Shown: one piece after another, positions 23,463-57,991 of the stretch
How the letters are laid out: each line of letters opens with the position of its first letter
Numbering within the stretch: the stretch's first letter is position 1
Assembly (NCBI GenBank): GCA_964489065.1
Contig: CAZAXH010000009.1
Location: forward strand, 7,616 to 71,615
Direction: 5' to 3'
Origin: an uncultured Planctomycetales bacterium
GTDB taxonomy: Bacteria; Omnitrophota; Gorgyraeia; Zapsychrales; JANLHA01
DNA length: 64,000 nt
Made by a program: the position numbers and the translations under genes
Notes under the pieces: generated by a model
What the model was told of the DNA's origin: nothing
Database searches by the model: none
What the model saw: the letters and a program-made list of their open reading frames with translations, nothing else

Positions 23463-25145
23463 TTACGGTACTTGCTGGGTCAAGTCATACAAGTAGACCG
23501 CCGCGCCTTTCCCTTCATACGTTTTTAAACGTTCCCCCTGCCTGTCCAGGGAAAATAACAGGAAGTCCTTGGCAACGGGGTTCATGCTGGAAAAGAAAAA
23601 CCAAGCTCTCTGCCGGTTGGGGAGAGCCAGCGGCGTGTTGATAAAAATCTTTTGCGGCTGACCGATGGTGTCATTGCTTAACAGCTCCCGGAAAAACCCC
23701 GCCTCGTTAAACACATAGACCACATAGCGAAAAAGCGCGTAAGGCTGCGGCGGCTCCATCAAAAGGTGATCCAAAAACTGCCCGGCCACATAACCCTGCT
23801 TACGCTCTCCTCCGGCTGATACCGGTATGGCCGGCGACATAAAACGTTCACAACCGAAACGCTGGCTGTAATACCAGAACGGAAACTGGGCCTCGCTATT
23901 GAGGACCAGCGCGTCCCCTTCCCGGGCCTCCCCGGACAGGAAAGCGATCGCTTCCCGGTTACTCTGGCGGTCAAAACCCTCCCGAACAGACAGGCACGCC
24001 TGCCGTAAAGAAGGAGACAAAATCAGGGCCGGCAAAAGAACAGCGAAAACCCGGAATGGCGGTTTGAGAAAAGAATTGATGAATATGACACCCTCGGCCA
24101 AGATAATCAGAATCAGAGGGACCAGAAACAGGGTCAGGCGTCCGCCGAAAGGGTACACGTGAAGCGCCGTGGCCAGCAGCGTGAAGAGAAATGGAAAAAT
24201 AAGAACCCCGCACATCTTAATATCCTTCCGCGCCCAAGCCGCCGCCCCGCAAACAAACACCGCCATCGTAACCGCAGCGCTGCCCTGCCCCACGGGATCC
24301 ACGAAAAACGCGGACACCGACTCTTTCAACCAGCGAAGGCTGGCCACAGACCATAAAGGCCACGGCATAAAAGAATTCTTCCACATATTAAACAGCACCG
24401 CGTCCTGCGCCATGCCGGAGAAAGAAACCCGGTATAAAACCGCGAAGCTGACGGCCCAGAGCGCCCAGGACAGGCCCAAGCGCTTCAGCTCCCCCCATTG
24501 CCTCGTTATAATCACCGGGATTCCCTGACAAAAGGCGACCGCGGCCAGAATAAACACCGACGGATTCGACGCCCACACACAGGCAGCGCCCGCGGCGCCC
24601 ATCCCGGCGGCCCGGCGCCACGTTAAAGACCCGGACGGGAACGGCACCGCCATTAAAACCAACAGGATTGTCGCCAGGACATCCATGGAATACGGCTTCA
24701 ATTCCGCCGCATAATAAATCAACGAAGAGCTGAACACAAACAAGGCCAAAGCCAGACTCCGGGCCGCCGGCGCGCAGATTCTTTGCACCAGCACATAAAA
24801 CGCGAACACTCCGGCGATACCGGCGCAGAACGGCCAGAACCGCAAAACGAGTTCCTGGTTCCCGAACCAGGACACCATCGTTTTTTCCAGGAACATAAAA
24901 AGATAAGGTTGTTGCGCGGAATTATCGGCTAAAGGGATACGCCGCAGGATTTCCAGCCAGGAACGGTTCACAACCAGCACGGCGGTCACGGTTTCATCCA
25001 GCCAGAAAGACCTGTTTCCGAAATAATGAACCGTCCGCAAGACAACACCAACGGTCATAAGACATACAGCGAAGAAACTCGAAGAAACAAAATCCCCTGT
25101 CTTCTTTATGATCTGCGGAATTTTCGAACCAGGCACAGGGATCAT
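23463..25145 (-). CDS. polytopic membrane protein, probable GT-C fold glycosyltransferase (ArnT/PMT-like)
   Basis: 560 aa with about 12 TM helices. The N-terminal first-loop region carries an acidic DE motif (RSFWLDETVTAVLV), the pattern typical of GT39/GT83-like lipid-linked sugar transferases. Confidence 0.4.
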   Translation of the reverse strand: MIPVPGSKIPQIIKKTGDFVSSSFFAVCLMTVGVVLRTVHYFGNRSFWLDETVTAVLVVNRSWLEILRRIPLADNSAQQPYLFMFLEKTMVSWFGNQELVLRFWPFCAGIAGVFAFYVLVQRICAPAARSLALALFVFSSSLIYYAAELKPYSMDVLATILLVLMAVPFPSGSLTWRRAAGMGAAGAACVWASNPSVFILAAVAFCQGIPVIITRQWGELKRLGLSWALWAVSFAVLYRVSFSGMAQDAVLFNMWKNSFMPWPLWSVASLRWLKESVSAFFVDPVGQGSAAVTMAVFVCGAAAWARKDIKMCGVLIFPFLFTLLATALHVYPFGGRLTLFLVPLILIILAEGVIFINSFLKPPFRVFAVLLPALILSPSLRQACLSVREGFDRQSNREAIAFLSGEAREGDALVLNSEAQFPFWYYSQRFGCERFMSPAIPVSAGGERKQGYVAGQFLDHLLMEPPQPYALFRYVVYVFNEAGFFRELLSNDTIGQPQKIFINTPLALPNRQRAWFFFSSMNPVAKDFLLFSLDRQGERLKTYEGKGAAVYLYDLTQQVP

Positions 25146-25175
25146 AGCACGCCAGCGTCGGGAGAGAAAGTGGCT

Positions 25176-25403
25176 TCAGGAGTTTGGGACAGGTTCATGG
25201 GCTTTACGGCCATAGACGCGTTCATAAGCCCGGCAAAATGGGCAAATCCGGTTTTCAATGGTCTTAACGAACCAAAAACTGAACCCTTTTTGTGTTTTCC
25301 TCGCGTTTTGGCATACCGGGCATTCCACGCACTTTTGCGCCATTTGACGATCCCGTTCGGTGATGGGCTGGTTTGAAGACATCTCGCCCTCCTTGTCTAT
25401 CAT
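25176..25403 (-). CDS. small zinc-ribbon protein (CxxC...CxxC)
   Basis: CVECPVCQ ...(26 aa)... CPFCRAYE in under 75 aa. Start codon uncertain. Confidence 0.35.
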   Translation of the reverse strand: MIDKEGEMSSNQPITERDRQMAQKCVECPVCQNARKTQKGFSFWFVKTIENRICPFCRAYERVYGRKAHEPVPNS

Positions 25404-25442
25404 GTTATGCGCCTGCGCCTCTTTTCAGCCTCCCAAAAAAGG

Positions 25443-25865
25443 TCAACTGCCCTCAACAGGAGACGGGTTCCCATGCAGGCGGCGATTAATGGATTTTCTG
25501 ATCTCGCTCAGGAGTTTTTGGGGATGAAGCGGCTTGGCAAAAATCCGGTACAGGCGGCCGTCCACATCTACGGTTTCATCTCCCTTATCCTGCTCAACCC
25601 CCATGGTCACCGTTATAAAAAAAACAGGGATCGCGCTCGTTAAAGAATCCCGCCGGAGCGCCCGTACCACATCCATGCCGCCGATATCCGGCAGCATGAC
25701 ATCCAGCAGAATAAGGTCTGGCAGTTCTTCCCGGGCTTTTACAATCCCTTCCTGGCCGTTGAAAGCCCCGATCACACTTTTCCCGGCGTTCTCGCACCAC
25801 TTTTGCAGCAAACGGACCGTGTTAGGATCATCATCAACAACAAGAATTTTGGAAGAGTTCCTCAT
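25443..25865 (-). CDS. single-domain response regulator (receiver only)
   Basis: KILVVDDDPNTVRLL...LILLDVMLPDIGGMDV...IPVFFITV receiver signature in 140 aa. Confidence 0.8.
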   Translation of the reverse strand: MRNSSKILVVDDDPNTVRLLQKWCENAGKSVIGAFNGQEGIVKAREELPDLILLDVMLPDIGGMDVVRALRRDSLTSAIPVFFITVTMGVEQDKGDETVDVDGRLYRIFAKPLHPQKLLSEIRKSINRRLHGNPSPVEGS

Positions 25866-25871: not shown

Positions 25872-26030
25872 TTAAAAAAGAGTGTAAATAAACGGGGCCA
25901 CCGCCGAACTCTCCGCAAAAATGATCAGCAGGCTCAACAGACCCAAAATAATAACGATAGGGGCCAGCCAATACCGTTTGCGGACACGAAGAAACATCCA
26001 TAATTCTTTCAGGATCGTAATTTTCGACAT
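25872..26030 (-). CDS. SxtK-like small membrane protein (DUF5989-type), 52 aa
   Basis: Manual translation gives MSKITILKELWMFLRVRKRYWLAPIVIILGLLSLLIIFAESSAVAPFIYTLF. The ...LRVRKRxWLxPI...SAVAPFIYTLF pattern is the one I recall for the small proteins encoded after sxtJ and NodU-type carbamoyltransferases. It is under 60 aa, so absent from the ORF track. Confidence 0.55.
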   Translation of the reverse strand: MSKITILKELWMFLRVRKRYWLAPIVIILGLLSLLIIFAESSAVAPFIYTLF

Positions 26031-26042
26031 AAACAAACCTCG

Positions 26043-26441
26043 CTAAAATTGTCTCTTATAATCTTCCTGGGTCGTCGGTTCTGCAGGACGCCGGCTCCAG
26101 TAACTTTTCCTGCCCGGATACATCGCCCGGTCTAAGGGGTCTTTACGCAACAGGCGCAACACACAGCCCACCGGGCCAAACACGACATAAAACATCACGG
26201 TCAAAATCAGCGTGGACACAACCGCACCGATCAACCGGACCCCGGCCATCCAGTACCGGTAAACCCCCTTCAGCCGGTCAGGGGCCAGCCAGGTCAGCCA
26301 CCCCAAAAACGCGGCCGCTAAAAATAACACGCCCTGCTGCAGCCCGAACCCGTGTCTGTACCCCCAGCGCAGGCCCGCCACCGACAGGATGACCGCCAAC
26401 CCGTAACCGAACACCAGAAGTTTTTTCCGTTCCTGCTCCAT
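26043..26441 (-). CDS. SxtJ-like small membrane protein
   Basis: 132 aa with 3-4 TM helices, positioned between the carbamoyltransferase and the SxtK-like gene, the arrangement seen in sxtI-sxtJ-sxtK-type triads. Confidence 0.45.
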   Translation of the reverse strand: MEQERKKLLVFGYGLAVILSVAGLRWGYRHGFGLQQGVLFLAAAFLGWLTWLAPDRLKGVYRYWMAGVRLIGAVVSTLILTVMFYVVFGPVGCVLRLLRKDPLDRAMYPGRKSYWSRRPAEPTTQEDYKRQF

Positions 26442-26447: not shown

Positions 26448-28310
26448 TTAATCTAAAATTCGCGAAATGTCTTCTTTTTGATATTTATCTTTATCCGGCT
26501 GATCTTCTTTCTTCAGCAAAAAATGCCCCAGGACCAAATTATCCATGTTTGTGCACATAAAACAGCGATAAGCGTCTTCCAGCGAACAGACAATCGGTTC
26601 CCCCCGGATATTAAAGGATGTGTTAATAATCACCGCGCAGCCGGTCAGGCGCTCAAACTCCCGGATAATGGCGTAAAAGACCGGGTTCGTTTCCGGAGAC
26701 ACCGTCTGGATCCGCGCGGAATAATCCACATGCGTGACCGCCGGGATATCCGACCGCAACACTTTGAGCTTTTGTATCCCCGCGCAATCACAATGCCGGC
26801 TGTCCGCTTTCACCTTGCTCTCCTGGACGTCCGCTACCAGCAGCATATACGGGCTCTTCCCGTCCAGTTGAAAATATTCCCGCGCCTTTTCCTCCAGCAC
26901 GCTCGGCGCGAACGGCCGGAACGACTCCCGGAATTTAATTTTCAAATTCAACAGTTCCTGCATGCGGGGGGACCGGGCGTCGGCGATAATGCTGCGGGCA
27001 CCCAAAGCGCGCGGGCCGAATTCCATCCGTCCGGAAAAAAGCCCCGCCACGCGCTGGTCGGCGACCAAAGCGGCCACCCGGCCGGGCAAGGCGTCCAGGC
27101 TGACGTCCTCATAGGGGATATGCCGCGCCTCCAGGAACTCCCGGATCTGCCCATCGTTGAACTCCGGGCCGAGAAACGACCCCTTCTGTGCGTCATGCGT
27201 TTCATCCGTAACCCGGGGGTTATCCAGGATCTGATACCAGACGAACAAAGCCGCGCCCAGCGCGCCGCCCGCGTCCCCGGCCGCCGGCTGAATCCAGACC
27301 TCTTTAAACGGCGTTTCCCTGAGCAAACGGCCATTACCCACGCAGTTCAGGGCCACGCCTCCGGCGAGGCACAGGGACTCACACCCGGTTTCCTTATGAA
27401 CATGCCGGGCCATTTTCAGCATAATTTCTTCCGTGACCTCCTGAATGGAGCGGGCGCAGTCCATGTCCCGCTGGGTGATTTCCGATTCCGGCCTGCGCGG
27501 AGGGCCGCCGAACAGCCGGTGAAAACGGCTGTTTGTCATGGTCAAACCGGCGCCGTAATTAAAGTAATCCATATTCAGCCGGAAAGAGCCGTCGTCTTTG
27601 ATATCAATCAGCTCCCGCCGGATTATCTCGGCATATTTTGGCTCGCCGTACGGGGCCAAACCCATGAGTTTATATTCCCCGGAATTCACCCGGAACCCGG
27701 CGTAATATGTGAAAGCCGAATACAACAACCCCAGCGAATGAGGGAAACGGATCTCCGCATCAAGTCTAATGCGCGCGCCGTCCCCCCTTCCGTAACTGGC
27801 CGTGGCCCATTCGCCCACCCCGTCCATCGTGAGGATCGCCGCCCTGCGGTAGGGCGACGGGAAAAAAGCCGCGGCGGCGTGGGATTCGTGGTGTTCGGGA
27901 AAAAAAATATCCCCCGCAAACCCGAGTTCCTGCCGGAGATAGTCTTTCATAAAAAGCTTCTGTTTAAGCCACAGCGGCATGGCTTTCAGAAACGAGCGGA
28001 TCCCCCAAGGCGCGTATGTCAGGTAAGTCATCAGAATGCGCTCGAATTTAACAAACGGTTTCTCGTAGAATGCAAGGCACGAAAGGTTTTTCACCGTGAT
28101 TCCGGCTTCCGCCAGGCAGAACCGGACGGCATGGGACGGGAAAGAAAAATCATGTTTCCTGCGGGTAAAACGCTCTTCCTGGGCCGCGGCGATAATTTCA
28201 CCGTTCTTCACCAGGCAAGCGGCGCTGTCGTGATAAAAAGCGGAAATACCCAAAATAAAAACATCTTTTTCTGCAGGCATATCGACTAAAATAACAAGGC
28301 CAGAATCCAA
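26448..28310 (-). CDS. NodU/CmcH-family carbamoyltransferase
   Basis: 620 aa. N-terminal ILGISAFYHDSAACLVKNGEIIAAAQEERFTRRKHDFSFP is the ASKHA-like start of the NodU/CmcH family. YRDM-like C-domain motifs appear later. Confidence 0.8.
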   Translation of the reverse strand: MDSGLVILVDMPAEKDVFILGISAFYHDSAACLVKNGEIIAAAQEERFTRRKHDFSFPSHAVRFCLAEAGITVKNLSCLAFYEKPFVKFERILMTYLTYAPWGIRSFLKAMPLWLKQKLFMKDYLRQELGFAGDIFFPEHHESHAAAAFFPSPYRRAAILTMDGVGEWATASYGRGDGARIRLDAEIRFPHSLGLLYSAFTYYAGFRVNSGEYKLMGLAPYGEPKYAEIIRRELIDIKDDGSFRLNMDYFNYGAGLTMTNSRFHRLFGGPPRRPESEITQRDMDCARSIQEVTEEIMLKMARHVHKETGCESLCLAGGVALNCVGNGRLLRETPFKEVWIQPAAGDAGGALGAALFVWYQILDNPRVTDETHDAQKGSFLGPEFNDGQIREFLEARHIPYEDVSLDALPGRVAALVADQRVAGLFSGRMEFGPRALGARSIIADARSPRMQELLNLKIKFRESFRPFAPSVLEEKAREYFQLDGKSPYMLLVADVQESKVKADSRHCDCAGIQKLKVLRSDIPAVTHVDYSARIQTVSPETNPVFYAIIREFERLTGCAVIINTSFNIRGEPIVCSLEDAYRCFMCTNMDNLVLGHFLLKKEDQPDKDKYQKEDISRILD

Positions 28311-28313
28311 CGT

Positions 28314-29882
28314 TCAGATGGATTGAAGTTCGGACATCTCTTTTAAAACCGTCATGGACGGGCTGTCTTCGCTCTCCAAAAGGCGCCTTTTTAACGGAGT
28401 CGCCAACATCCGTAAAATATGGGCCTTTGTTTCCGCGCCGAATCGGCTTTCAATCATTTGCAGATACTCCGGCCGGCTGTGATAACGGACGAAGGCTTCG
28501 TCCCGGAACCGCAAGACGTCCCGGGCGGGAACGTGTTTCGTCGGCATCGGGCAGCATTCGTACCCGTAAAGAGAATATCCCGTCCAGGTTTCCGGCTCTT
28601 CAATATAATCATATAATTTCGTCCCCGGATAAGGGAACACCGGATACATATTGACCCACTCAAAATTATACCGCAATAGAAACGCGTACGTGCGCTGCAT
28701 GGACGCGATATCCTCTTCCCAGAGCCCGAACATCACGTCCGCGCAGATATTCACGCCTTCGTCCTGCGTCATGCGGATGACCTGGTCGACATCGGGCGTT
28801 CGGCAGCCTTTTTCCGCCTGCAGGAGAATTTCGTTCGTCGCTGATTCAAACCCGTAAGAAATCCAGTTCAAACCCACTTCCTTCAGGCGGCGCAGGAGCC
28901 GGCGGTTGATCGTGTCAACCCGGGAATAGGCCCACATGTTAAGGTCGTATTTCTTCGCTTCCAGCTTATCGCAGAATTCCTCAATCCGTTTGGGCTTCAC
29001 CACAAAAAGCTCATCCAGGATTTTGATATGCCTCACACCGTAGCGTTCAACCAAAAGGCTGATCTCGTTGACCACGCTGTCCACGCTGCGGAACCGCTGG
29101 GTCCGCTTCCCGAACAGATTATTGATGCAACAAAAATTACATTTAAACGGGCAGCCAAAACTCGTCCAGATAATCGCATACGGGGAACGGGTGAACACGT
29201 CCCCGAAACAGTGCCAATTGTGCGCCCGGTACCGCGCCGGGTTCATGGTTTTCCAGTCCACGGTCGGAAGGACATCCAGGTCTTTCACTAAAGGGGCCTC
29301 TGCGGTCTGAATATAGATTTCCTCCCCTCCGCAGTCTTCGTGATAAGCCAGCCCGGGGATATCCGCCAGGGATCCCCCGCTGTGAAGGACATGATATAAA
29401 TTGACAATGGTCTCATACCCTTCGCCCCGGACAACAAAATCCGCACCGGTTTCTTTAAGCGAACGCTCCGGCAAAACCGTGGGGTGCGGCCCCCAAATAA
29501 ACATTTTAACTCCCGCCAACTCTCCTCTACGGCTGCGGACCTTCTTAAAAAATTCCACAATCCCCGCCATCGTCATTGTGGAGGAAGAAGGGTTCGCTCC
29601 CGTGCTGATGACTCCGAACAACAGGGGCTTTTCCGAAGCCACGCGGTCGATCAGTTCGTCCATCGAAATCTGATCCACGTCCGACTCAATCATGCAGCAG
29701 TCAATCTCTTTGGCTTTTACGTAAGCCACCAGAAGCCCCATCTGGATATTCGGGGCCACGGCCGAAAATTCGTCCGCGGTCGTGGAATACAACTGTTTTT
29801 TGCAATTCACCGTGGCCAGGATAATTTTATCACGCACATCCGCCCCCATTTTTGCCTTATTATAACCCAACAAACGTGACAC
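28314..29882 (-). CDS. B12-binding (class B) radical SAM enzyme
   Basis: N-terminal cobalamin-binding Rossmann domain, then radical SAM core with TSFGCPFKCNFCC (CxxxCxxC). Confidence 0.75.
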   Translation of the reverse strand: MSRLLGYNKAKMGADVRDKIILATVNCKKQLYSTTADEFSAVAPNIQMGLLVAYVKAKEIDCCMIESDVDQISMDELIDRVASEKPLLFGVISTGANPSSSTMTMAGIVEFFKKVRSRRGELAGVKMFIWGPHPTVLPERSLKETGADFVVRGEGYETIVNLYHVLHSGGSLADIPGLAYHEDCGGEEIYIQTAEAPLVKDLDVLPTVDWKTMNPARYRAHNWHCFGDVFTRSPYAIIWTSFGCPFKCNFCCINNLFGKRTQRFRSVDSVVNEISLLVERYGVRHIKILDELFVVKPKRIEEFCDKLEAKKYDLNMWAYSRVDTINRRLLRRLKEVGLNWISYGFESATNEILLQAEKGCRTPDVDQVIRMTQDEGVNICADVMFGLWEEDIASMQRTYAFLLRYNFEWVNMYPVFPYPGTKLYDYIEEPETWTGYSLYGYECCPMPTKHVPARDVLRFRDEAFVRYHSRPEYLQMIESRFGAETKAHILRMLATPLKRRLLESEDSPSMTVLKEMSELQSI

Positions 29883-36860: not shown

Positions 36861-36926
36861 GTTAAATCCCTCATGATAACGACGTCGATTCAAGGATATA
36901 TATAAGCTCCCATGATTTGCCCGTGT

Positions 36927-46880: not shown

Positions 46881-46909
46881 ACCACACCCTCACGGGAACA
46901 AAAGCAAGG

Positions 46910-47969: not shown

Positions 47970-47989
47970 AATCGCGTTCTATCCTTTGT

Positions 47990-51947: not shown

Positions 51948-52836
51948 GGCACCTTTTCTTTCTCGTTAAGAATTCATGCGACCCGCGCGTCTCCAAAGAG
52001 CTCTCCGGCAAACTCCCGTGCCGCCGCAATTTATAAAGATGCGGATTCTGTGCAAGCCGCTTCATAAGCTCCCGGCCCCCGTCGGCTTTCCAGGGATCAT
52101 GGACAACGGAAAAATTACGTCCCGAGGCCACGGTCTTCCCGGCCCGGATAAAGCGTTCGATGCAGTCATAAATATCCTGGTACGGCGTGCCGTCTTCCGT
52201 TTTCAAATACCGCACGGTCGCGCGGTATTTGTCCTTCGGGACATGCGGGTCATTTAAAACAGCCTGGTGAATCTTCGTCCTGGTCCATCCCGGCCCGACG
52301 ATGAACACATTCATATCCTGGTTTTCGGCATCCAGATATTCGCACATCTTGATGAGCATCAATTTGGACACCGTGTAAGCGGAAAAATTCCTGACCGGCT
52401 TGTTCACCCCTCCTCCGGCGAAGAAAACCACGTGCGTCCGGACGCGGGCCTTTCTCAAAGGATATAATGCGTGCAGCGCCCGCAGCTGCGCCAGGGCGTT
52501 GACTTCGACGGACTCTCTCCATCGCCCGAAGTCAGCCGCGAAAAACGCCTGGACCGGACAGGGGTCGCCCGCGCAGGAGATAAAAATATCCCACGGCGCC
52601 TTGAGCCCTTGATACCGCTTCAGGCAGCGTGACAGGCTGGCGGGTTTGGCGATGTCACAGCGGAGCATTTCACAATTCGGATACGCAGAAAGAGCGCTGA
52701 CCCCGGAAGAAGGCGTGCGGTATGTTCCGATCACCCGGTAGCCTTTTTTCAGATATTGCCCGGCGATGAATAAGCCGATGTCACTACTAGCCGCCAACAT
52801 AAAAACGGTTTTAGAACATTTCCCCACGGATCCCAT
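51934..52836 (-). CDS. short-chain dehydrogenase/reductase
   Basis: KTVFMLAASSDIGLFIAGQYLKKGYRVIGTYRT (TGxxxGIG-like), YTVSKLM (YxxxK). Start taken at the ATG giving MGSVGKCSKTVF. Confidence 0.65.
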   Translation of the reverse strand: MGSVGKCSKTVFMLAASSDIGLFIAGQYLKKGYRVIGTYRTPSSGVSALSAYPNCEMLRCDIAKPASLSRCLKRYQGLKAPWDIFISCAGDPCPVQAFFAADFGRWRESVEVNALAQLRALHALYPLRKARVRTHVVFFAGGGVNKPVRNFSAYTVSKLMLIKMCEYLDAENQDMNVFIVGPGWTRTKIHQAVLNDPHVPKDKYRATVRYLKTEDGTPYQDIYDCIERFIRAGKTVASGRNFSVVHDPWKADGGRELMKRLAQNPHLYKLRRHGSLPESSLETRGSHEFLTRKKRCHEKK

Positions 52837-52916
52837 CCTCCGGCACCGGGCTTCCTGACGCCTCTCCACCGCAAACTTCTCCTATTATTATATGAGCACG
52901 GCTCCCAGCTCCAACA

Positions 52917-53951
52917 TCAATACGGCCCCAAAAACGGTGCATCTTCCTTAATCTGTTTCTTATTGTAAAAAATATCCCGGGCCAGGAGCTCCAGCGCGAT
53001 TTCAATAATCGTATGGCAGGACGGGTAAAAACAGTCTTCCAACGGTTTGGAAACCGGGCAGGGGCTGAACGCCCAGCCCACGCGCTTCACCGGCGCTTTC
53101 AGCGCCGGGAACGCCCGGTCCGCAACCAGCGCCGCCACCTCAGCGGAAAATCCGCAGGGCAGCCAGTCATTATCGACGCACATCAGCCGGCCGGTTTTCC
53201 GCACGGACGCGCAGATGGTTTCCCCGTCAACCGGCTGCAGGCACACCGGATCAATGACTTCGATCTCGATGCCCTGGCCGGATAAAATTTCCGCCGCCTT
53301 CAGCGCTTCCGAAACCATGAGCGAGGTGGCCACGACCGTCAGATCCCGCCCCTCCCGATGCACGCGTGCTTTCCCGAAAGGAACCTCATAGGGGTCTTCC
53401 GGTACCGGACCTTCCGCATCGTACAGGGCCCGGGACTCAAAAACCAGGACCGGACCGTCTGTCCTCAGCCCCCGCAAAATAAGCCCCTTTACCAAATAGG
53501 GAGAACTCGGGACAACCACGTGCAGGCCGGGATAATGCGCGCAAAGCGCCTGGATGTTCTGGGAATGCGTGACGCCCTGGCCCCAGCCTTTTCCCACAAT
53601 CGCCCGGACCAGACAAGGGACGGAGCTTTTCCCGGCATACACGTATTTCCACTTCGCCGCATTATTAAGCAGCTGATCCAAAGCCAGAAACATAAAATCA
53701 TGCCGGGCATGCACCAGAACCGGCCTTTTCCCGTTCAAAGCGGCCCCCAGCATGATCCCCGTCAGAGCGTTCTCGCTGGCGGGCGTGTCAAAAACCCTCT
53801 CGGGGCCGAACTTCAAAAAAGCGGCGTGGGTTGTTCCGAATATCCCCTTGTAATCATCCACGCCGAGCCCGAAAATAAACACATCCGGGTCCCGGAGCAT
53901 CCCCTGAACCAAGGCCTCGCTGATCGCCTCTTTATATGTTAACGTTCGCAT
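52917..53951 (-). CDS. 2-oxoacid/acetoin dehydrogenase E1 component beta subunit-like (transketolase-like Pyr and C domains)
   Basis: MRTLTYKEAISEAL...FGLGVDD...FDTPASENALTGIMLGAALNGKRPV is collinear with E1-beta. RBS GGGAGAA lies 4 nt upstream. Confidence 0.8.
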   Translation of the reverse strand: MRTLTYKEAISEALVQGMLRDPDVFIFGLGVDDYKGIFGTTHAAFLKFGPERVFDTPASENALTGIMLGAALNGKRPVLVHARHDFMFLALDQLLNNAAKWKYVYAGKSSVPCLVRAIVGKGWGQGVTHSQNIQALCAHYPGLHVVVPSSPYLVKGLILRGLRTDGPVLVFESRALYDAEGPVPEDPYEVPFGKARVHREGRDLTVVATSLMVSEALKAAEILSGQGIEIEVIDPVCLQPVDGETICASVRKTGRLMCVDNDWLPCGFSAEVAALVADRAFPALKAPVKRVGWAFSPCPVSKPLEDCFYPSCHTIIEIALELLARDIFYNKKQIKEDAPFLGPY

Positions 53952-53967
53952 CCGTTCTCCCGGAGTT

Positions 53968-54924
53968 TCAATAAATATTCTGCGGCAGGTCTTCCGCCGC
54001 CGGCCAATCACTCTTGAGCGCGGCCGCATACGCCGCGTCCGCTTGCGCCTGGAAGTCCCGGCGCAAAAGCGCGACGTCCTCAGGCGTTAAGACCCCCTGA
54101 TCCCCCAAATACCTCTCCATCCGTTTTAAAGGGCAGCGTTTCATCCAGGACTCCACCTCTTCCCGGCTCCGGTAACCCCGGTCATAATCATACAGCGGAC
54201 CGACATGCTCGCGGATACGGTAGGTCAGGCATTCCACAAAGACCGGGCCTGATCCCTGCCGCACGCCGGGGATCAGGTCCGAAACCGTTTCATAAATACC
54301 GGCAGCGTCATTCCCGTCAATTTGAAACGCAGGCAGTTCCGGGGTACGCACCCGCTCATATATCGGCGAAGGCGGCTGCCGCGCACTTAACGGAGAATGA
54401 GTGGAATACGTATTGTTCTCGCAAATAAACAATACCGGCAGCTTCTTCAACACCGCGAAATTCACACTCTCGGCAAAAACCCCCTCCTCAACTGCCGCGT
54501 CACCGAACAGGGCCACCGCAACCCCGTCCTTCCGGTCCATAACAAAAGACATGGCCGCGCCCACCGCCACCGGAATCATCGATCCGAGGATCGGAGATGC
54601 GAACACGTGTCTGTCCACGCAGGACAGATGCGCGGACCCGGCCCGGCCCCGGCTGGTGCCGGCCACCCGGCCGCAAAGCTCCGCGAAAAAAGCCTCCAGG
54701 TCTCCACCCCGGGCCAGGTAAGCGGCATGGCAACGGTGAGAAACAAAAACCTGATCGTCGGAACGCAGGGCCTGACAGACAGCGGCGGCCACGGCCTCCT
54801 GCCCGATAGAAAGGTGGGTCGGCGTACGCATCGTCTGGTCGGCATAAACCTCGGTGATTTTTTCTTCCGCCGTTCGGATGCGCAGCATGGACATATAAAT
54901 CTGTTTTAAAACGGAGTCGCTCAT
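53968..54924 (-). CDS. 2-oxoacid/acetoin dehydrogenase E1 component alpha subunit-like (ThDP-binding)
   Basis: YMSMLRIRTAEEKI..., then FGDAAVEEGVFAESVNFAVLKKLPVLFICENNTYS (GDG-type ThDP motif ...NN). Confidence 0.8.
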   Translation of the reverse strand: MSDSVLKQIYMSMLRIRTAEEKITEVYADQTMRTPTHLSIGQEAVAAAVCQALRSDDQVFVSHRCHAAYLARGGDLEAFFAELCGRVAGTSRGRAGSAHLSCVDRHVFASPILGSMIPVAVGAAMSFVMDRKDGVAVALFGDAAVEEGVFAESVNFAVLKKLPVLFICENNTYSTHSPLSARQPPSPIYERVRTPELPAFQIDGNDAAGIYETVSDLIPGVRQGSGPVFVECLTYRIREHVGPLYDYDRGYRSREEVESWMKRCPLKRMERYLGDQGVLTPEDVALLRRDFQAQADAAYAAALKSDWPAAEDLPQNIY

Positions 54925-55913
54925 TTCAAGGATAACGCCTGCATCGTGCGTATGTTGTAATAACGGTTGTCCTCCATTGAACGGGGGATAAGCCCTTTTT
55001 CAAAGGCCTGCTTCAAATCGGCGCACGCCCGCTCGATACTGTGCCGCGGGGCGAACCCCAGTTCGGATAAAATTTTCTTCGACGAAATCCGATACGAACG
55101 ATTATCATCCGTAGGAACACGCTCAATCTCGACCCGGTCGTTACCAACGGTGTTCTTGACGATCTCTGCGATTTCATTCACGGTATGGTTCTGATAGCCC
55201 GCGTTATAGATTTTTCCGGCAATCTCCTTGGCAGGGCACTCCAAAACGCGGACATAAAGATCGGTGATGTCTTCCATATGGATGTTCGGCCGCTGCTGCT
55301 CTCCGCCAAAAACCTTGATCCGTCCGGTATTGACCGCATGGTTCGTCAGGATATTCACGGTCAAATCCAGTCTTAACCGGGGTGAAAAACCGCAGACAGT
55401 CGCCGGCCTTAAAATAAGCGCCGTGAAATCCTTGTCCTGTTCTTTGAGCAAGACCTCTTCACAGAGGGCCTTATACCGGGAATAATCGGTCAACGGATAC
55501 AGCGGGAGGTCTTCCGTGACCTCCGGTTCCTCTTTGATGCCGTACACACTTGAACTCGAAGCAAAAATAAAACGCCGGACGCGGGCCTCTTTGGCGATTC
55601 TGACAAGAGGCAAAAATGCGTCGTAATTCACCGATTTGCCCAGCGCCGGATTAAGCTCATAACTCGGATCGTTTGAAATACAGGCGAGGTGAATCACGGC
55701 GTCCATTCCAGGCATTTCACGCTCAAGAAGAGCCCGGTCACGGATATCGCCTTTGACCTGAGTCAAACCCGGATGCCCTTCCACAGCGCGCAGGACGTCT
55801 TCCCCGTAAATATACCAATCAAGGACTTTAACGTGATACCCGCCCGCCAGGAGCTTGGGGACAAGCACCGCTCCGACATACCCTGCCCCACCCGTCACTA
55901 AAATATTTTTCAT
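54921..55913 (-). CDS. NAD-dependent sugar-nucleotide epimerase/dehydratase (extended SDR)
   Basis: MKNILVTGGAGYVGAVLVPKLL and YSRYKAL (YxxxK). The ATG at 55913 overlaps the TGA of the upstream GT9 gene (ATGA). The 125-codon upstream extension in the track is rejected. Confidence 0.8.
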   Translation of the reverse strand: MKNILVTGGAGYVGAVLVPKLLAGGYHVKVLDWYIYGEDVLRAVEGHPGLTQVKGDIRDRALLEREMPGMDAVIHLACISNDPSYELNPALGKSVNYDAFLPLVRIAKEARVRRFIFASSSSVYGIKEEPEVTEDLPLYPLTDYSRYKALCEEVLLKEQDKDFTALILRPATVCGFSPRLRLDLTVNILTNHAVNTGRIKVFGGEQQRPNIHMEDITDLYVRVLECPAKEIAGKIYNAGYQNHTVNEIAEIVKNTVGNDRVEIERVPTDDNRSYRISSKKILSELGFAPRHSIERACADLKQAFEKGLIPRSMEDNRYYNIRTMQALSLK

Positions 55914-56839
55914 GATAAAAGCCTTTCGCAAATAGCGGCCACCTTGGCCGGGGAGATATCCTCCATGCAGAAACGGCTGTTTTGACAGTATGGAAGATAA
56001 CACGGGCGGAGAGGACAATCCAGCGGGGACGCGACCACGGTCACGTTCCCGACGCCCTGCATGCGCCGGTGATGCGTGGGGCCGTACAAAGAAACAACCT
56101 GTTTCCCGAGGGCCTGGCCGAGGGCCTGCCCCAGCGAATCCGACGTAACCACCAGACGGCACTGCCCGATCCATTCCGTGTAACGCCTCAAATCCCGGTG
56201 TCCCTTCTGCCAGGACACCCGGTATTTTTTTCCCAGCAAACGCTCCAGCTTTTTCCAGTGTTTTTCCGGCCAAGCCTTTGTCGGCCACTTTATCCCCACC
56301 GCATAATTAAATCCCACGTCGTACCGTATCGATCCAGGAGAGGCGATGGAAAGCACCGGGCCTTGCCCCTCCCATTTTTCATCGACTGTTTCCGCGAGTA
56401 TCTCCAGAAAAGACTTATCAATATGCCGATGATTCTCCTGCCCGGCCAAAAGATATTGGTCTGTCCGGCGGTGCGTCGCAATGGCATGGGCCCGGTCATC
56501 AAAATAAAAACCGTACTTCTTTTTGGCCTTGACCTGGCTTAAGAAAGCACATATCCCGGCATCTTTTTCCAGGTTAATGAGGAGATCGTACTTTTTCTGC
56601 GCGATGGTGTTCAACGCCCGGGGTCCGAAAAGCAGCAGATCTTTAATATACGGGTTCCCGGCCAATAACCACCGGGCTTCCCAGGACGTCACCCACGTCA
56701 CTTCATCTTCCTTATAAAAATGCAAAAGAGCCGTGCACATCAGGACATCGCCCAGGCTGACCGTAATCGAAATCCCCCGATCAAGCAACTCGGAAAATCC
56801 GGTCTTGATCACCAGAATTTTTCTGTTACGCTTTTTCAT
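55910..56839 (-). CDS. family 9 glycosyltransferase (heptosyltransferase-like)
   Basis: KILVIKTGFSELLDRGISITVSLGDVLMCTALL... and a C-terminal GQCRLVVTSDSLGQALGQALGKQVVSLYGPT are typical of GT9 (RfaF/RfaC-like). Start taken at MKKRNRK. Confidence 0.65.
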   Translation of the reverse strand: MKKRNRKILVIKTGFSELLDRGISITVSLGDVLMCTALLHFYKEDEVTWVTSWEARWLLAGNPYIKDLLLFGPRALNTIAQKKYDLLINLEKDAGICAFLSQVKAKKKYGFYFDDRAHAIATHRRTDQYLLAGQENHRHIDKSFLEILAETVDEKWEGQGPVLSIASPGSIRYDVGFNYAVGIKWPTKAWPEKHWKKLERLLGKKYRVSWQKGHRDLRRYTEWIGQCRLVVTSDSLGQALGQALGKQVVSLYGPTHHRRMQGVGNVTVVASPLDCPLRPCYLPYCQNSRFCMEDISPAKVAAICERLLS

Positions 56840-57743
56840 CAAACCGGATATCCACCGATGTATAACCAAATTGCTGCAGGTGATTGGTCTTGACCTTGAT
56901 ATCACAAGGGCTGCAAAGGCCATAAAAAGAACAAGGGCGATACTTCTGCTCCAGGCGCAGCGTTTCATCCCGGATGTTTCCCAAGGCGAGATGCGAACGG
57001 CCCGCGTACAAATCCGCATGGCATTTATAAATATTCCCATCCGGGCCTATCGGGAAGACCGTGTTCCGGCACCAGACTTTGTCCCGCGACACACCTTTTC
57101 CCAGACAAGCGTCAGGATATTTATATTCGCCGTACATCTTCCCGTCATGTTCTCCCAGAAAAATTTTTGTGCGGAACTCAACGCCTTCAGCGCGCGCCTC
57201 CGCCCTCACCGCTTCAATCAGTTCCGGGTAGGCCGGGTGACTAATATGATAAAGGCCTATACTCAAACCGCATTCTTCCTGAAGTTCCTTAATACGCCGG
57301 ATCAGGACCCGGAAATCGTTCTGCCCCCGGTGAAAACTCACCCGAATAGTCGGATAAGGGGCCACCCGATGATTCCACGCCAGCGATTCCAAAGCTTTAA
57401 ACCGCTCCACCGTAACATGAGATGGCAGCGCAGTCAAAATATCCACTTTATGCCGGATATTTTCCAACAACTCCCATATCCCGGGATAAAGAAACGGCTC
57501 CCCCCCCTGCAACGTTATCGGCACGCCTTCCGGAAGATGAAAGCGGTTCAGCCCCTGAATCCAGGAAAAGGGATCCAGCTCAACACCTCCCGGGCGGTTG
57601 ATAAACGGCTCGTTAATATTCGTCACACAATAGGGGCATTTCAAAAAACAACGGTTTGTCAAATAAACCCCCACGTAATCTGTCTGAAGCGGAACAGGGA
57701 TTCTGATGTCAGATACTATTGGGTTACTTAATGGCACTATCAT
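56826..57743 (-). CDS. radical SAM enzyme with C-terminal Cys-rich (SPASM/twitch-like) region
   Basis: YLTNRCFLKCPYC (CxxxCxxC), LQGGEPFL, and C-terminal CRNTVFPIGPDGNIYKC...CSFYGLCSPC. Start uncertain (ATG 57743 versus GTG 57815). Confidence 0.65.
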   Translation of the reverse strand: MIVPLSNPIVSDIRIPVPLQTDYVGVYLTNRCFLKCPYCVTNINEPFINRPGGVELDPFSWIQGLNRFHLPEGVPITLQGGEPFLYPGIWELLENIRHKVDILTALPSHVTVERFKALESLAWNHRVAPYPTIRVSFHRGQNDFRVLIRRIKELQEECGLSIGLYHISHPAYPELIEAVRAEARAEGVEFRTKIFLGEHDGKMYGEYKYPDACLGKGVSRDKVWCRNTVFPIGPDGNIYKCHADLYAGRSHLALGNIRDETLRLEQKYRPCSFYGLCSPCDIKVKTNHLQQFGYTSVDIRFDEKA

Positions 57744-57991
57744 TATGAATCCAGATTGTTTTATTGGAACATTTTTCTCTGTTAACCGATTTTTAAGGCA
57801 AGGGCACAAACACACTCATTAGGACGAAATTTATTATATAGAAGAAAAAGAGCCAAAGCAATAAAGGAAAAGGGTATTTAACGCTAAAGTAAATATCTAC
57901 AGCCTTATGGCTACAGTTTTATACTGCAGGGACAAAAAAACGGCCGGGGGCAAAGTCCCCGGCCGCTAAAGCGAATCAAAAATCCTGTCTT

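Follow-up and report, generated by a model that had tools for sequence, protein, structure and literature searches.

Two described schemes bear on the locus considered here. For acyl-branched sugars, a ThDP enzyme is found beside a reductase, as in the pairs YerE/YerF and AviB1/AviB2 (PMC9306805, PMC4753412). In a second, established scheme, a GT2 glycosyltransferase and a YfhO GT-C act via a C55-P-sugar (PMC7389260). The present locus is chromosomal, a ~34-kb chain of ~33 same-strand genes from an uncultivated Candidatus Omnitrophota bacterium, and it lies in a stretch of 64,000 nucleotides (the window). To our knowledge, its enzyme mix is combined by no characterised pathway.

Gene chain and boundaries

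The block comprises the following features, given in the direction of transcription:

57939..57967, minus: intrinsic-terminator-like hairpin, 11-bp stem with 9 G-C pairs, then a T run
57829..57888, minus: conserved 60-nt block directly upstream of the first gene (identity to L001, L002)
56826..57815, minus: rSAM_f, radical SAM, first gene of the distal cassette (PF04055, 30.6 bits)
55910..57040, minus: GT9-family glycosyltransferase (PF01075, 44.2 bits, cut-off 22)
54921..55913, minus: Epim_b, extended SDR, GalE-like sugar-nucleotide epimerase/dehydratase (PF01370, 128 bits)
53968..54924, minus: E1 alpha-like ThDP subunit (PF00676, 179 bits)
52917..54029, minus: E1 beta-like ThDP subunit (Transket_pyr and Transketolase_C domains)
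51934..52869, minus: SDR_c, classical SDR directly downstream of the E1 pair (adh_short, 61 bits)
51252..51947, minus: MT_b, SAM-dependent methyltransferase (Methyltransf_23, 74 bits)
49471..51255, minus: ALS-like ThDP enzyme (TPP_enzyme_N, M and C domains)
48675..49499, minus: GT2_b glycosyltransferase (PF00535, 81.7 bits)
47990..48712, minus: MT_a, SAM-dependent methyltransferase (Methyltransf_11, 71.7 bits)
47463..47969, minus: hyp168, small membrane protein with soluble C-terminal part (3-4 predicted TM helices)
46910..47485, minus: hyp191, small membrane protein (3 predicted TM helices), conserved in L070/L071
44658..46880, minus: Mem740, predicted YfhO-type GT-C glycosyltransferase (12 predicted TM helices)
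42378..44516, minus: Mem712, predicted GT-C-fold membrane protein (11 predicted TM helices)
41160..42233, minus: rSAM_e, radical SAM/SPASM (PF04055 66 bits, SPASM 33.8 bits)
40159..41100, minus: TPR protein, last gene of the swappable cassette (TPR families)
39045..39863, minus: SDR_b, classical SDR, first gene of the conserved core (adh_short, 146 bits)
37937..39043, minus: rSAM_d, radical SAM/SPASM, core marker (PF04055 and SPASM)
37038..37937, minus: PHP/CehA-like metallohydrolase, candidate phosphoesterase (PHP_C, 31 bits)
35823..36893, minus: rSAM_c, radical SAM (PF04055, 78.5 bits)
34286..35815, minus: B12rSAM_b, B12-binding radical SAM (B12-binding and Radical_SAM domains)
33463..34299, minus: split transketolase, N-terminal ThDP-binding chain (Transketolase_N, 155.7 bits)
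32501..33469, minus: split transketolase, C-terminal chain (Transket_pyr and Transketolase_C domains)
31694..32479, minus: SDR_a, classical SDR directly after the transketolase (adh_short_C2, 161.7 bits)
30896..31621, minus: GT2_a, short GT2, candidate polyprenyl-phosphate sugar transferase
29926..30894, minus: Epim_a, extended SDR, GDP-fucose-synthase-like (PF01370, 164 bits)
28314..29882, minus: B12rSAM_a, B12-binding radical SAM (Pfam domains)
26448..28310, minus: O-carbamoyltransferase, NodU/CmcH type (Carbam_trans_N 334.8 bits, Carbam_trans_C 234.9 bits)
26043..26441, minus: SxtJ-like small membrane protein (PF19588, 30.7 bits, cut-off 24.4)
25872..26036, minus: SxtK-like DUF5989 small membrane protein, 54 aa (PF19451, 82.8 bits, cut-off 27)
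25443..25865, minus: stand-alone response-regulator receiver domain (PF00072, 63.8 bits)
25176..25403, minus: putative 75-aa cysteine-rich ORF (CxxCxxC ... CxxC), from the ORF listing and translation
23463..25145, minus: 560-aa polytopic membrane protein, candidate GT-C that closes the block (7 or more TM helices predicted)

An unbroken run of 31 minus-strand ORFs with family support extends between the receiver gene and the radical SAM gene ending at 57815, both included; downstream of the receiver gene come the 75-aa ORF, whose zinc-finger matches are all sub-threshold, and the 560-aa membrane protein. The co-directional chain described in an earlier note on this DNA holds up: of the 31 junctions, 22 overlap or leave fewer than 30 nt, and all four overlaps named there are present (-7 at 33463-33469, -1 at 37937, -4 at 51252-51255, and -4 at 55910-55913). 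However, nearly all genes between 10.6 and 64 kb of the window lie on the minus strand (GC skew is negative throughout), and the shared orientation does not set the block apart. Furthermore, gaps of 141-295 nt with promoter-like sites occur inside the block, so that a single transcript can at most be inferred; a promoter-like site at 42301-42273 lies upstream of rSAM_e.

Both boundaries are independently supported. Upstream, the strong terminator-like hairpin (57967-57939) follows a coiled-coil gene within a stretch 92.6% identical to L001 and marks the 5' boundary. The 60-nt block after it is 95% identical to L001 3324-3383 and 85% identical to L002, the genes that follow differ, and a TATAAT hexamer is visible in it; it is likely to be a promoter or leader common to different cassette variants. 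Downstream, a promoter-like site (23421-23392) and a riboswitch match (23370-23293) lie beyond the last gene.

Conserved core and exchangeable cassette

In L070 and L071, the genes of the distal module and those that open the core keep their order, with 48-90% amino-acid identity, and L075 retains the stretch from Mem712 inward together with the start of the core. With its gene order kept in these three other contigs, the block is conserved and did not come together by chance. In L002 the core is colinear at 82-91%, and Elusimicrobia UBA5214, Ca. Saelkia tenebricola, and seven metagenome contigs keep most of it in the same order; rSAM_d orthologues, a narrow group, are 57-89% identical and lie in colinear loci. 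The co-location elsewhere on which the earlier note had made its proposal depend is therefore found, for distal and early-core genes in L070, L071, and L075 and for the core in L002.

The same comparisons do not sustain the claim that one super-operon serves one pathway. In the closest relatives, positions 39882-57828 (17.9 kb) are exactly replaced by 5.8 kb; L001 DNA is 92-95% identical on both sides, its replacement encodes other YfhO-type genes, and identity with L001/L002 picks up again at 39881. In addition, the trio of B12 radical SAM enzyme, short GT2, and epimerase also occurs alone in other phyla, where relatives of GT2_a, 53-70% identical, adjoin B12rSAM_a. Judged by sequence, the block is thus a mosaic in which a conserved core (~26-39.9 kb) adjoins a swappable 17.9-kb cassette. 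Within the cassette, the TPR protein is 52-71% identical in L070/L071 and only 30-34% identical to the TPR gene of L001/L002. hyp168, which is 61-69% identical in L070/L071, found no match in family searches, and hyp191 is weakly similar to it (phmmer, E 0.004).

Candidate tailoring enzymes

Pfam agrees with the earlier note on six radical SAM enzymes, two of them B12-binding; CX3CX2C is present in 6/6, at residue 56 in rSAM_f, which has a counterpart at the end of L070. None reaches the cut-off of a named NCBIfam family (best, 146-165 bits against cut-offs of 480-577), and the housekeeping assignment that had been named as fatal to the proposal was not obtained. For three of the enzymes, the closest solved structures are sugar-modifying, which argues for a sugar pathway; these include BlsE, a cytosylglucuronate decarboxylase, for rSAM_c (61.6 bits) and AprD4 for B12rSAM_b (62 bits). 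The B12rSAM_a family is large (1523 relatives at E<=1e-20), with relatives in the glycan loci L072-L074, L076, and L077. However, peptide maturation is another typical setting for SPASM and B12 radical SAM enzymes, which counts against a sugar. A seventh B12 radical SAM gene, membrane-anchored, lies just outside the block at 60937-62877.

The expected ThDP enzymes (split transketolase, E1 alpha/beta pair, ALS-like enzyme) and five SDRs, two extended and three classical, are likewise confirmed by Pfam, and every ThDP enzyme has an SDR at a distance of one gene or less; SDR_c is a candidate side-chain ketoreductase. The C-terminal transketolase chain matches the solved split transketolase 6yaj at 173 bits. 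Scores against curated models stay under cut-off for the E1 alpha-like gene (PDH E1 alpha, 257 bits, cut-off 394), the ALS-like enzyme (acetolactate synthase, 373 bits, cut-off 538), Epim_a (GDP-L-fucose synthase, 152.6 bits, cut-off 500), and Epim_b (GalE, 113 bits, under its cut-off). The E1 beta-like subunit is 76-88% identical in L070/L071, and its true start is probably internal, given that 62 nt of the listed ORF are shared with the E1 alpha gene.

Agreement extends to two GT2, one GT9, two methyltransferases, the PHP hydrolase, and the carbamoyltransferase with its SxtJ/SxtK-like partners, for which Pfam finds both enzyme domains, and SxtJ and DUF5989 exceed their cut-offs. The GT9 protein, 75-84% identical in L070/L071, scores only 22-30 bits against heptosyltransferase I/II/III equivalogs (cut-offs 135-185), and its listed start is probably too far upstream, given a 215-nt overlap with rSAM_f. 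The PHP/CehA-like hydrolase scores 71 bits to the CehA/McbA domain (cut-off 80). An aminoglycoside or cyclitol product, also suggested by the earlier note, finds no support, as Pfam domain content gives the block no sugar-phosphate cyclase, inosose synthase, aminotransferase, or resistance/export gene.

Proposed membrane transfer and pathway

The best matches of GT2_a are AglJ (98.5 bits), Dol-P hexose transferase (81), and ArnC (51), all under cut-offs, and its closest solved structures are ArnC and DPMS; it thus resembles polyprenyl-phosphate (Dol-P/Und-P) hexose transferases. Three GT-C-like proteins had been claimed, and predicted models favour two. For Mem740 (pLDDT 86), the top 25 PDB matches are GT-C enzymes in 25/25 cases, and PF09586 occurs in 14/26 of the proteins listed in its homologue search. 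For Mem712, a very rare family (8 relatives among 5.8 billion proteins), the top 32 are all GT-C, with STT3/AglB/PglB and DPY19 first. In these models both have GT-C folds, although their TM-scores against GT-C structures lie between 0.3 and 0.48, and the Mem712 model (pLDDT 66.6) is of moderate confidence only; both points count against envelope glycosylation. The 560-aa protein, with an FWLDET motif after TM1, stays a candidate; Pfam, NCBIfam, PDB, and profile comparison gave it no match.

Related loci carry further GT-C and sugar-nucleotide genes. In L073, L076, and L077, B12rSAM_a is followed by a gene for a YfhO-related protein (758-787 aa), and PMT_2 GT-C genes are present in L073 and L006. 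L073 and L077 have GHMP kinase, NTP transferase, and DegT aminotransferase, L012 has GHMP kinase together with NDP-hexose 4,6-dehydratase, and L003 has 4,6-dehydratase, GT1, an ABC transporter, and another split transketolase. Against this, family searches of the block itself detected no nucleotidyltransferase, sugar kinase, or clear 4,6-dehydratase, and no GtrA/ArnE/F-type or Wzx flippase.

On balance, we lean towards a cell-envelope glycosylation locus of at least three modules, in which a heavily tailored sugar is put on an envelope molecule via polyprenyl phosphate and GT-C enzymes; the best reading of the sugar is C-branched, C-methylated, and carbamoylated. In this model, a sugar nucleotide would first be tailored in the cytoplasm. 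The split transketolase, E1 pair, and ALS-like enzyme would each form C-C bonds or supply C2/C7 units, and the adjoining SDR would reduce the new keto group. B12-dependent radical SAM enzymes would methylate or otherwise modify unactivated carbons, SPASM/twitch-type enzymes would carry out oxidation, epimerisation, dehydration, or decarboxylation, and methyltransferases and the carbamoyltransferase would decorate hydroxyl groups. GT2_a would then load the sugar onto polyprenyl phosphate, and after flipping, Mem740, Mem712, and possibly the 560-aa protein would hand it over to an acceptor on the outer side of the cytoplasmic membrane, perhaps LPS, another polymer, or a surface protein. The order of steps, including the chemical order put forward in the earlier note, the substrates, tailoring on nucleotide rather than lipid carrier, and the acceptor are what we infer. 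Because no enzyme reaches a curated family cut-off, substrate assignments are superfamily-level similarities, which counts against the model. The sugar pathway ending in GT-C transfer that the earlier note had outlined nevertheless fits the GT-C folds, the GT2_a similarity, and the sugar-nucleotide genes of related loci.

GT2_a is without the membrane helices of ArnC and GtrB, which counts against envelope glycosylation. However, the cassette swap at 39882-57828 resembles surface-glycan loci and argues for an envelope glycan, and the pairing of GT2_a with YfhO-type Mem740 parallels the known GT2/YfhO scheme via C55-P-sugar (PMC7389260). Finally, the ALS-like enzyme is of the same architecture class as YerE, and the adjacency of ThDP enzymes and SDRs resembles the logic of YerE/YerF and AviB1/AviB2, which argues for a branched sugar.

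Gene content and limits of the block

An unbroken chain of minus-strand genes had been described in the earlier note, and the ORF map is indeed continuous from 57815 down to 23463. Pfam families were assigned to 26 of the 31 genes from the receiver gene through the last radical SAM gene, and they bear out the enzyme classes that had been read from the sequence: six radical SAM genes, two of them B12-binding; a split transketolase, an E1 alpha/beta pair and an ALS-like ThDP enzyme; two extended and three classical SDRs; two GT2 genes and one GT9 gene; two methyltransferases; a PHP-type enzyme, in this case a PHP_C/CehA-like hydrolase; and a carbamoyltransferase gene, after which SxtJ and a DUF5989 ORF come next. 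This gene content is established, and all enzyme assignments stand at the superfamily level. The listed starts of the GT9 and E1 beta genes probably lie too far upstream.

Radical SAM, ThDP and DUF5989 genes of the block, as detected by Pfam
28314-29882 and 34286-35815, minus strand: radical SAM with B12-binding domain
37937-39043 and 41160-42233, minus strand: radical SAM, SPASM domain detected
35823-36893 and 56826-57815, minus strand: radical SAM, core domain only
33463-34299 and 32501-33469, minus strand: split transketolase
53968-54924 and 52917-54029, minus strand: E1 alpha/beta pair
49471-51255, minus strand: ALS-like ThDP enzyme
25872-26036, minus strand: DUF5989 (SxtK-like), 54-aa ORF

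The tight spacing of the genes also holds; 22 of 31 junctions overlap or are shorter than 30 nt, and the four overlaps specified in the earlier note are exact. The common orientation is by itself no evidence for an operon, because minus-strand genes run from 10.6 to 64 kb, well past the block, with a negative GC skew throughout. Gaps of 141-295 nt within the block carry promoter-like sites (42301-42273, 39978-39949 and 39905-39878), and a terminator/promoter scan of the block found no strong terminator inside it. An Rfam search found neither a riboswitch nor any other Rfam family within the block.

At the upstream edge, the strongest terminator-like hairpin of the region (57967-57939; an 11-bp stem with 9 G-C pairs, and a T run) comes after a gene ending at 57992 that encodes a 675-aa coiled-coil protein. 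This gene (57992-60019, minus strand), which the terminator parts from the block, is low in GC (0.42), with strong GC and AT skew and internal DNA repeats at about 58140-59175; its product has one N-terminal membrane helix and a long coiled-coil (SMC-like) similarity, and is 85-94% conserved in the closest relatives. At the downstream edge, a 10-of-12 promoter-like site (23421-23392) is located past the end, at 23463, of a gene for a 560-aa membrane protein, and a match to the c-di-GMP-I-GGC riboswitch is present at 23370-23293 on the minus strand, its 59.4 bits barely exceeding the gathering score of 59 (E 2e-13, local search). A new transcription unit is therefore indicated there. No convincing ORF was seen after the riboswitch match, the next features being a tRNA (22757-22830) and a DUF748-like gene (21738-22718).

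The genes of the block have a third-codon-position GC of 0.53-0.74, as against 0.36-0.59 in several flanking genes (0.36 in a GDSL-like gene at 19932-21017), a contrast that might stem from expression level or from the block having a different origin. Other envelope-related loci of the window lie at 6476-10541 (plus strand) and at 10650-13360, 13676-14884 and 16927-19635 (minus strand). They encode a periplasmic glucan pair resembling MdoG/MdoH, an ECF sigma factor along with a VWA/YfbK protein, a protein that has PD40 repeats and a PEP-CTERM sorting signal, and a TPR-ankyrin protein of 902 aa.

A conserved core and a swappable cassette

Related loci were obtained by scans seeded with the radical SAM gene rSAM_d and by look-ups of homologues of Mem740 and Mem712, two large membrane proteins of the block. 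They establish both the conservation of the block and its modular structure: the genes sit together in other genomes, so the claim of a joint locus is not refuted on this count. The closest relatives, L001 and L002, are labelled as Candidatus Omnitrophota MAGs; by core identity the closest loci are L001/L004 and L002/L005 (82-96% amino-acid identity). The breakpoints of the cassette that distinguishes L001 are exact, as determined by DNA alignment with the window.

The window aligned with the Omnitrophota locus L001
60856-57934: 92.6% identical DNA
57888-57829: 95% identical, the 60 nt directly upstream of the first gene
57828-39882: 17.9 kb and 16 genes (the distal cassette, rSAM_f to TPR); L001 has instead 5.8 kb with a different TPR protein and YfhO-type proteins
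39881-34156: 92.3% identical DNA (core, beginning with SDR_b)

A conserved leader and a conserved core that flank a swappable cassette form a pattern typical of surface-glycan loci. The cassette and the first core genes are found together, with the gene order of the window and 48-90% amino-acid identity, on a 592-kb contig (L070) and a 3.36-Mb contig (L071). There the order GT9 - Epim_b - E1a - E1b - SDR_c - MT_b - ThDP - GT2_b - MT_a continues as hyp168 - hyp191 - Mem740 - Mem712 - rSAM_e - TPR - SDR_b - rSAM_d - PHP and onward; an rSAM_f orthologue ahead of GT9 was seen only at the end of L070. A further contig, L075, is a mosaic, with genes for an FAD oxidase, an SDR, an asparagine synthase and a GMC oxidoreductase between its two GT-C genes. 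A narrower core (SDR_b - rSAM_d - PHP - rSAM_c - B12rSAM_b - TK_N - TK_C - SDR_a - GT2_a - Epim_a, where TK_N and TK_C are the split transketolase) is colinear in Elusimicrobia UBA5214 (L003; 51-67% identity), in Ca. Saelkia tenebricola (L073; 48-69% identity) and in the metagenome contigs L006, L008, L009, L010, L012 and L014, and some of these loci have additional tandem radical SAM genes.

Two further proteins were noted in the relatives. In L070 (16884-18494), L071 (16770-18380) and L075 (14507-16081), a gene between TPR and SDR_b encodes a conserved protein of 524-536 aa that matches nothing in Pfam significantly. The window has a 295-nt gap at that place with no remnant of the gene, and the idea that the gene is a displaced copy of the window's 560-aa protein was rejected, the two proteins being unrelated. 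Amid five or six tandem radical SAM genes, L006 (13655-16564) and L008 (6245-9328) encode proteins of 969-1027 aa that are close homologues of each other and have no Pfam match.

This modularity bears on the most serious of the rival explanations, in which the block would be several independent envelope-sugar pathways side by side, each module with its own modification and delivery. Candidate modules would be the distal cassette with GT2_b and the GT-C pair, the transketolase/radical SAM core, and a trio of B12rSAM_a, GT2_a and an epimerase together with the carbamoyltransferase. Indeed, L001, L002, L004 and L005 keep the core and lack the whole distal cassette, L077 is without PHP, rSAM_c and B12rSAM_b, and the trio (B12rSAM_a, a short GT2_a that is 53-70% identical, and an extended SDR) stands alone amid O-antigen-like/heptose genes in two places: L072, from Magnetofaba australis, where GT2_a is 63% identical, and L074, from a deltaproteobacterial MAG, which has SIS/HAD genes. 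The presence of a pair of GT2 genes and of two or three GT-C candidates, as well as the promoter-like sites inside the block at 42301-42273 and 39978-39878, could be read in the same way. However, in all loci that have it, the distal cassette lies directly upstream of the core and in the same orientation; the same 60-nt upstream block stands ahead of both cassette variants, which fits a single promoter for cassette and core; and no strong terminator intervenes. Independent pathways are thus considered unlikely, though they deserve a hearing.

Radical SAM and ThDP enzymes

By the earlier note, the idea would fail if the radical SAM genes belonged to housekeeping families (RlmN, MiaB or BioB, for instance). 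In a comparison that also took in MoaA and others, no gene reached any NCBIfam cut-off, the highest scores being 146-165 bits versus cut-offs of 480-577; MiaB/RimO-type models gave at most 45 bits (cut-off 251) and MoaA at most 97 (cut-off 284). Each of the window's seven radical SAM proteins has the CX3CX2C motif intact. Among solved structures, AprD4 comes nearest to B12rSAM_a and B12rSAM_b, and BlsE to rSAM_c. Both are sugar-modifying enzymes; these matches are weak (57-62 bits) and span mainly the radical SAM core. The B12rSAM_a family is large, with 1523 relatives at E<=1e-20, whereas the rSAM_d orthologue group is narrow: two full-length representatives precede a drop in score from 461 to 255 bits. 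Many rSAM_d paralogues (~30-39% identity) have about 620-790 aa, the radical SAM part being fused behind an N-terminal domain of ~340 aa.

The seventh protein, a B12-binding radical SAM protein of 646 aa, is encoded outside the block (60937-62877, minus strand). Its approximately six predicted N-terminal membrane helices are unusual for this class; the gene adjoins a second stand-alone receiver domain (62947-63327, minus strand), and a homologue that is 49% identical is found in L001 and L002 at the matching upstream position.

Sub-threshold NCBIfam matches also prompted hopanoid, ladderane-lipid, phosphonate and haem-type readings, which were rejected because the scores lie far under the cut-offs and the partner genes are absent. 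More generally, it could be proposed that the target of the locus is a membrane lipid, hopanoid-like or with some other polar head group, rather than a glycan. B12rSAM_a reaches 146 bits on the HpnJ model and the same on BchE, weak matches to HpnH, HpnR and lipid B12 radical SAM models are seen for other radical SAM genes, and the epimerases weakly match HpnA, but all of this falls far below cut-offs of 225-650 bits. Furthermore, the window has no gene for a squalene-hopene cyclase or a lipid synthase, and the neighbours in related loci are sugar-nucleotide genes. A lipid product is consequently given very little credence.

Each of the three ThDP systems (ALS-like, E1 alpha/beta and split transketolase) lies within one gene of an SDR, so that a ThDP carboligase is found beside a candidate side-chain reductase, as in YerE/YerF- or AviB1/B2-type systems. 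The C-terminal chain of the split transketolase matches the solved split transketolase 6yaj with 173 bits. In the literature, no record was found of a split transketolase as a sugar-branching enzyme. It might, rather than form a branch, provide the sedoheptulose 7-phosphate from which a heptose is made; this role would be in keeping with GT9, with the GHMP kinase and NTP transferase of relatives, and with the SIS/HAD genes of L074.

Pfam and NCBIfam searches of the block ORFs found no nucleotidyltransferase or clear 4,6-dehydratase. Epim_a is GDP-fucose-synthase-like (152.6 bits, under the cut-off), and Epim_a and Epim_b reach only 83-88 bits on the dTDP-glucose 4,6-dehydratase model, versus a cut-off of 365. 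Such genes do occur in relatives: L073 and L077 have a GHMP kinase, an NTP transferase and a DegT aminotransferase; L012 has a GHMP kinase, an NDP-hexose 4,6-dehydratase and a GT1; and L003 has a 4,6-dehydratase, a second split transketolase, a GT1 and an ABC transporter. The E1 pair of L012, like that of L014, is beside an NDP-hexose 4,6-dehydratase and epimerases.

Transfer enzymes, the proposed pathway and known systems

GT2_a shows a sequence affinity to polyprenyl-phosphate sugar transferases. Its best NCBIfam scores, all below cut-off, are to AglJ (98.5 bits; cut-off 325), a haloarchaeal Dol-P hexose transferase (81; 375) and ArnC (51; 529), and its nearest solved structures are ArnC, DPMS and the GtrB-like sll0501. 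All of these are polyprenyl-phosphate sugar synthases. GT2_a itself, a candidate for such an enzyme, is short, with no membrane helices predicted.

Three large membrane proteins had been called GT-C-like in the earlier note, and for two of these, Mem740 and Mem712, GT-C folds are recovered in predicted models. Mem740 is YfhO-type (PF09586 in 14 of the 26 proteins listed in its homologue search), and for its model (pLDDT 86, pTM 0.88) all of the top 25 PDB matches are GT-C enzymes, including EmbB, STT3, AftD, ArnT, AglB, PglB, DPY19, AftA, ALG9 and Pmt4. The model of Mem712 is weaker (pLDDT 66.6), yet its top 32 PDB matches are likewise all GT-C, with oligosaccharyltransferases and DPY19 leading; this family, with eight relatives among 5.8 billion proteins, would be structurally closest to oligosaccharyltransferases. 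For both, TM-scores to GT-C structures are only 0.3-0.48, and the GT-C calls derive from the predicted folds. By these models, a GT-C-fold transferase acting outside the membrane appears to be present in the block.

The 560-aa protein (23463-25145), with at least seven predicted TM helices and an FWLDET motif after TM1, has no match in Pfam, NCBIfam, the PDB or profile comparison. PDB sequence searches with it, Mem740 and Mem712 found nothing; Pfam at E<=5 gave no match for it or Mem712; and profile comparisons among the three revealed no mutual relationship. In the related loci L073, L076 and L077, YfhO-related proteins of 758-787 aa come directly after B12rSAM_a, and L073 and L006 have PMT_2-type GT-C genes.

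No flippase (small multi-span, GtrA/GtcA or ArnE/F type) was detected in the block by Pfam or NCBIfam. GT9 belongs to the wider GT9 family (PF01075, 44.2 bits versus a cut-off of 22); its identification as an LPS inner-core heptosyltransferase (WaaC/WaaF/WaaQ) was rejected at 22-30 bits against cut-offs of 135-185. Two adjacent genes, hyp191 (191 aa) and hyp168 (168 aa; 46910-47969 for the pair, minus strand), encode weakly similar proteins with 3-4 membrane helices each and faint winged-helix matches in their C-terminal parts. Both are conserved wherever the distal cassette was found, have no match among Pfam or NCBIfam families even at E<=5, and are not GtrA-like.

The predicted fold of Mem712 raises the question of a peptide or protein substrate, since its best structural matches (STT3, PglB, AglB, DPY19) glycosylate proteins. 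SPASM and B12 radical SAM enzymes are a hallmark of RiPP maturation, and many NCBIfam peptide-maturase models are matched, albeit far below their cut-offs; the radical SAM enzymes could then mature a RiPP or modify a protein that the sugar genes subsequently glycosylate. A putative cysteine-rich 75-aa ORF (25176-25403, minus strand; CVECPVC ... CPFC) is located between the receiver and 560-aa genes, with gaps of 30 and 39 nt. It has no family match; a zinc-ribbon protein is one possibility, and a peptide substrate a less likely one. However, no precursor gene is found beside the radical SAM genes, nor any leader peptidase or peptide exporter in the block, and in every related locus genes for transketolase, SDR, GT2 and epimerase lie in among those for the radical SAM enzymes. 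The intergenic gaps of the block also yielded no convincing small precursor ORF. The chances of this explanation seem slight, although the 75-aa ORF and the oligosaccharyltransferase-like fold predicted for Mem712 keep a protein-glycosylation variant alive.

The carbamoyltransferase, SxtJ and DUF5989 genes are adjacent, with 6-nt junctions, and all score above the Pfam cut-offs (Carbam_trans_N 334.8, Carbam_trans_C 234.9, SxtJ 30.7 versus 24.4, DUF5989 82.8 bits versus 27). These three genes were seen together in the window only; the L002 locus stops inside the carbamoyltransferase gene, and in further relatives that place is taken by a YfhO-type gene. The SxtJ and SxtK families are named after saxitoxin genes, and the three families of SxtI/J/K adjoin in the window as they do there, but the other genes of the saxitoxin cluster are absent, and in the window the three genes close a putative sugar operon.

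Together with the B12/twitch-type radical SAM enzymes, SDRs and carbamoyltransferase, which are typical of aminoglycoside/nucleoside antibiotic pathways, and with AprD4 and BlsE among the nearest solved structures, these names would suit a cluster whose product is a diffusible secondary metabolite resembling an aminoglycoside, a cyclitol or a nucleoside. An aminoglycoside-like or cyclitol product had been suggested in the earlier note. That part of the proposal is not borne out, as a Pfam scan of the block ORFs found no sugar-phosphate cyclase, inosose synthase, aminotransferase, exporter or resistance gene. Moreover, two predicted GT-C-fold enzymes and a candidate polyprenyl-phosphate-type GT2 point to transfer onto a macromolecule outside the membrane, the locus is fixed in its chromosomal position and contains a cassette that is swapped, and related loci lie amid O-antigen-like and heptose genes. 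A diffusible product is accordingly regarded as improbable.

Precedents exist for both halves of a different scheme. In the three-component CsbB/GtcA/YfhO system, which glycosylates teichoic acids via polyprenyl phosphate, a C55-P-sugar is made by a cytoplasmic GT2 and carried through the membrane by a small flippase, and a GT-C enzyme moves the sugar to an extracytoplasmic polymer (PMC7389260). In sugar loci, ThDP enzymes carry out acyl branching of NDP-4-keto sugars, after which the side chain is reduced, either with one ALS-like enzyme (YerE/YerF, ErwE/ErwF) or with a two-protein complex (AviB1/AviB2); YerE/YerF serve yersiniose in O-antigen, and AviB1/AviB2 and Pau11/Pau12 serve antibiotics (PMC9306805, PMC4753412). 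Given the GT2-YfhO and ThDP-branching precedents and the ThDP-SDR adjacency, the block most likely serves sugar tailoring, polyprenyl-phosphate loading and GT-C transfer. In this model, a sugar would be tailored by C-C bond formation and reduction, by radical steps (methylation, redox or rearrangement), and by O-methylation and O-carbamoylation of its hydroxyls. GT2_a would put the tailored sugar on polyprenyl phosphate, and the GT-C enzymes would pass it on outside the membrane. The substrates, the order of the steps, the stage of tailoring (nucleotide or lipid carrier) and the acceptor are features that we infer.

The overall logic, in which polyprenyl-phosphate/GT-C glycosylation is joined to a branched-sugar pathway, is already known. 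What is new is the attached enzyme set, in which six radical SAM enzymes are joined by three ThDP classes and by two GT-C families that have no Pfam model. No description of the cassette turned up in searches of the literature on Omnitrophota/Omnitrophica radical SAM enzymes, B12 radical SAM enzymes in O-antigen, and radical SAM with GT-C/YfhO. To our knowledge, there is hardly any record of B12-dependent or SPASM-type radical SAM enzymes in the synthesis of envelope glycans. A conserved cassette that unites such enzymes with ThDP carboligases of three types and with GT-C transferases would indicate sugar chemistry beyond known O-antigen, capsule and Arn-type pathways. Magnetofaba australis is a cultured magnetotactic bacterium, and the presence there of the widespread B12rSAM_a trio offers a practical way to test the chemistry. 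Omnitrophota are small, largely uncultivated cells, in which a strain-variable, cassette-swapping surface-sugar locus would bear on host/prey contact and phage recognition.

Among the closest known systems are the three-component polyprenyl-phosphate systems, to which GtrA/B/C (O-antigen) and ArnC/E/F/T (lipid A) also belong. As in CsbB/GtcA/YfhO, Gtr and Arn, one or more enzymes with a predicted GT-C fold, one of them YfhO-type, lie in the same putative operon as a cytoplasmic GT2 (GT2_a), which may be of the polyprenyl-phosphate type, and three related loci have a YfhO-type gene behind their GT2/epimerase/B12 radical SAM trio. Unlike those systems, the block has no GtrA/GtcA/ArnEF-type flippase that could be found, and its GT2_a is short and without membrane helices; they carry a plain or lightly modified sugar, whereas in the block as many as six radical SAM enzymes and three ThDP enzymes go with the transfer genes, in a presumably diderm host from an uncultivated phylum. 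The acyl-branched sugar pathways (YerE/YerF, ErwE/ErwF, AviB1/AviB2, Pau11/Pau12) resemble the block by class and placement, with ALS-like and two-subunit E1-like ThDP enzymes beside reductases. They differ in that the block unites three different ThDP systems, including a genuine split transketolase, and in that the window itself is without dehydratase/nucleotidyltransferase genes for an NDP-4-keto-6-deoxyhexose. AprD4, BlsE and GenK/BtrN-type enzymes represent radical SAM sugar tailoring in aminoglycoside/nucleoside pathways; the likeness consists in the weak AprD4 and BlsE matches, but the scaffold-forming genes of those pathways are all absent from the block.

Finally, a bolder version of the tailoring, loading and transfer model may be considered, which we hold to be rather doubtful. 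The radical SAM and B12 radical SAM enzymes would act on a sugar already on polyprenyl phosphate, the product would be an undescribed, multiply C-branched, C-methylated, carbamoylated higher-carbon sugar, and the two new GT-C families would deliver it to Omnitrophota surface proteins or LPS. Tailoring at the lipid stage would then resemble that of mycobacterial DprE1/E2, but with radical chemistry.
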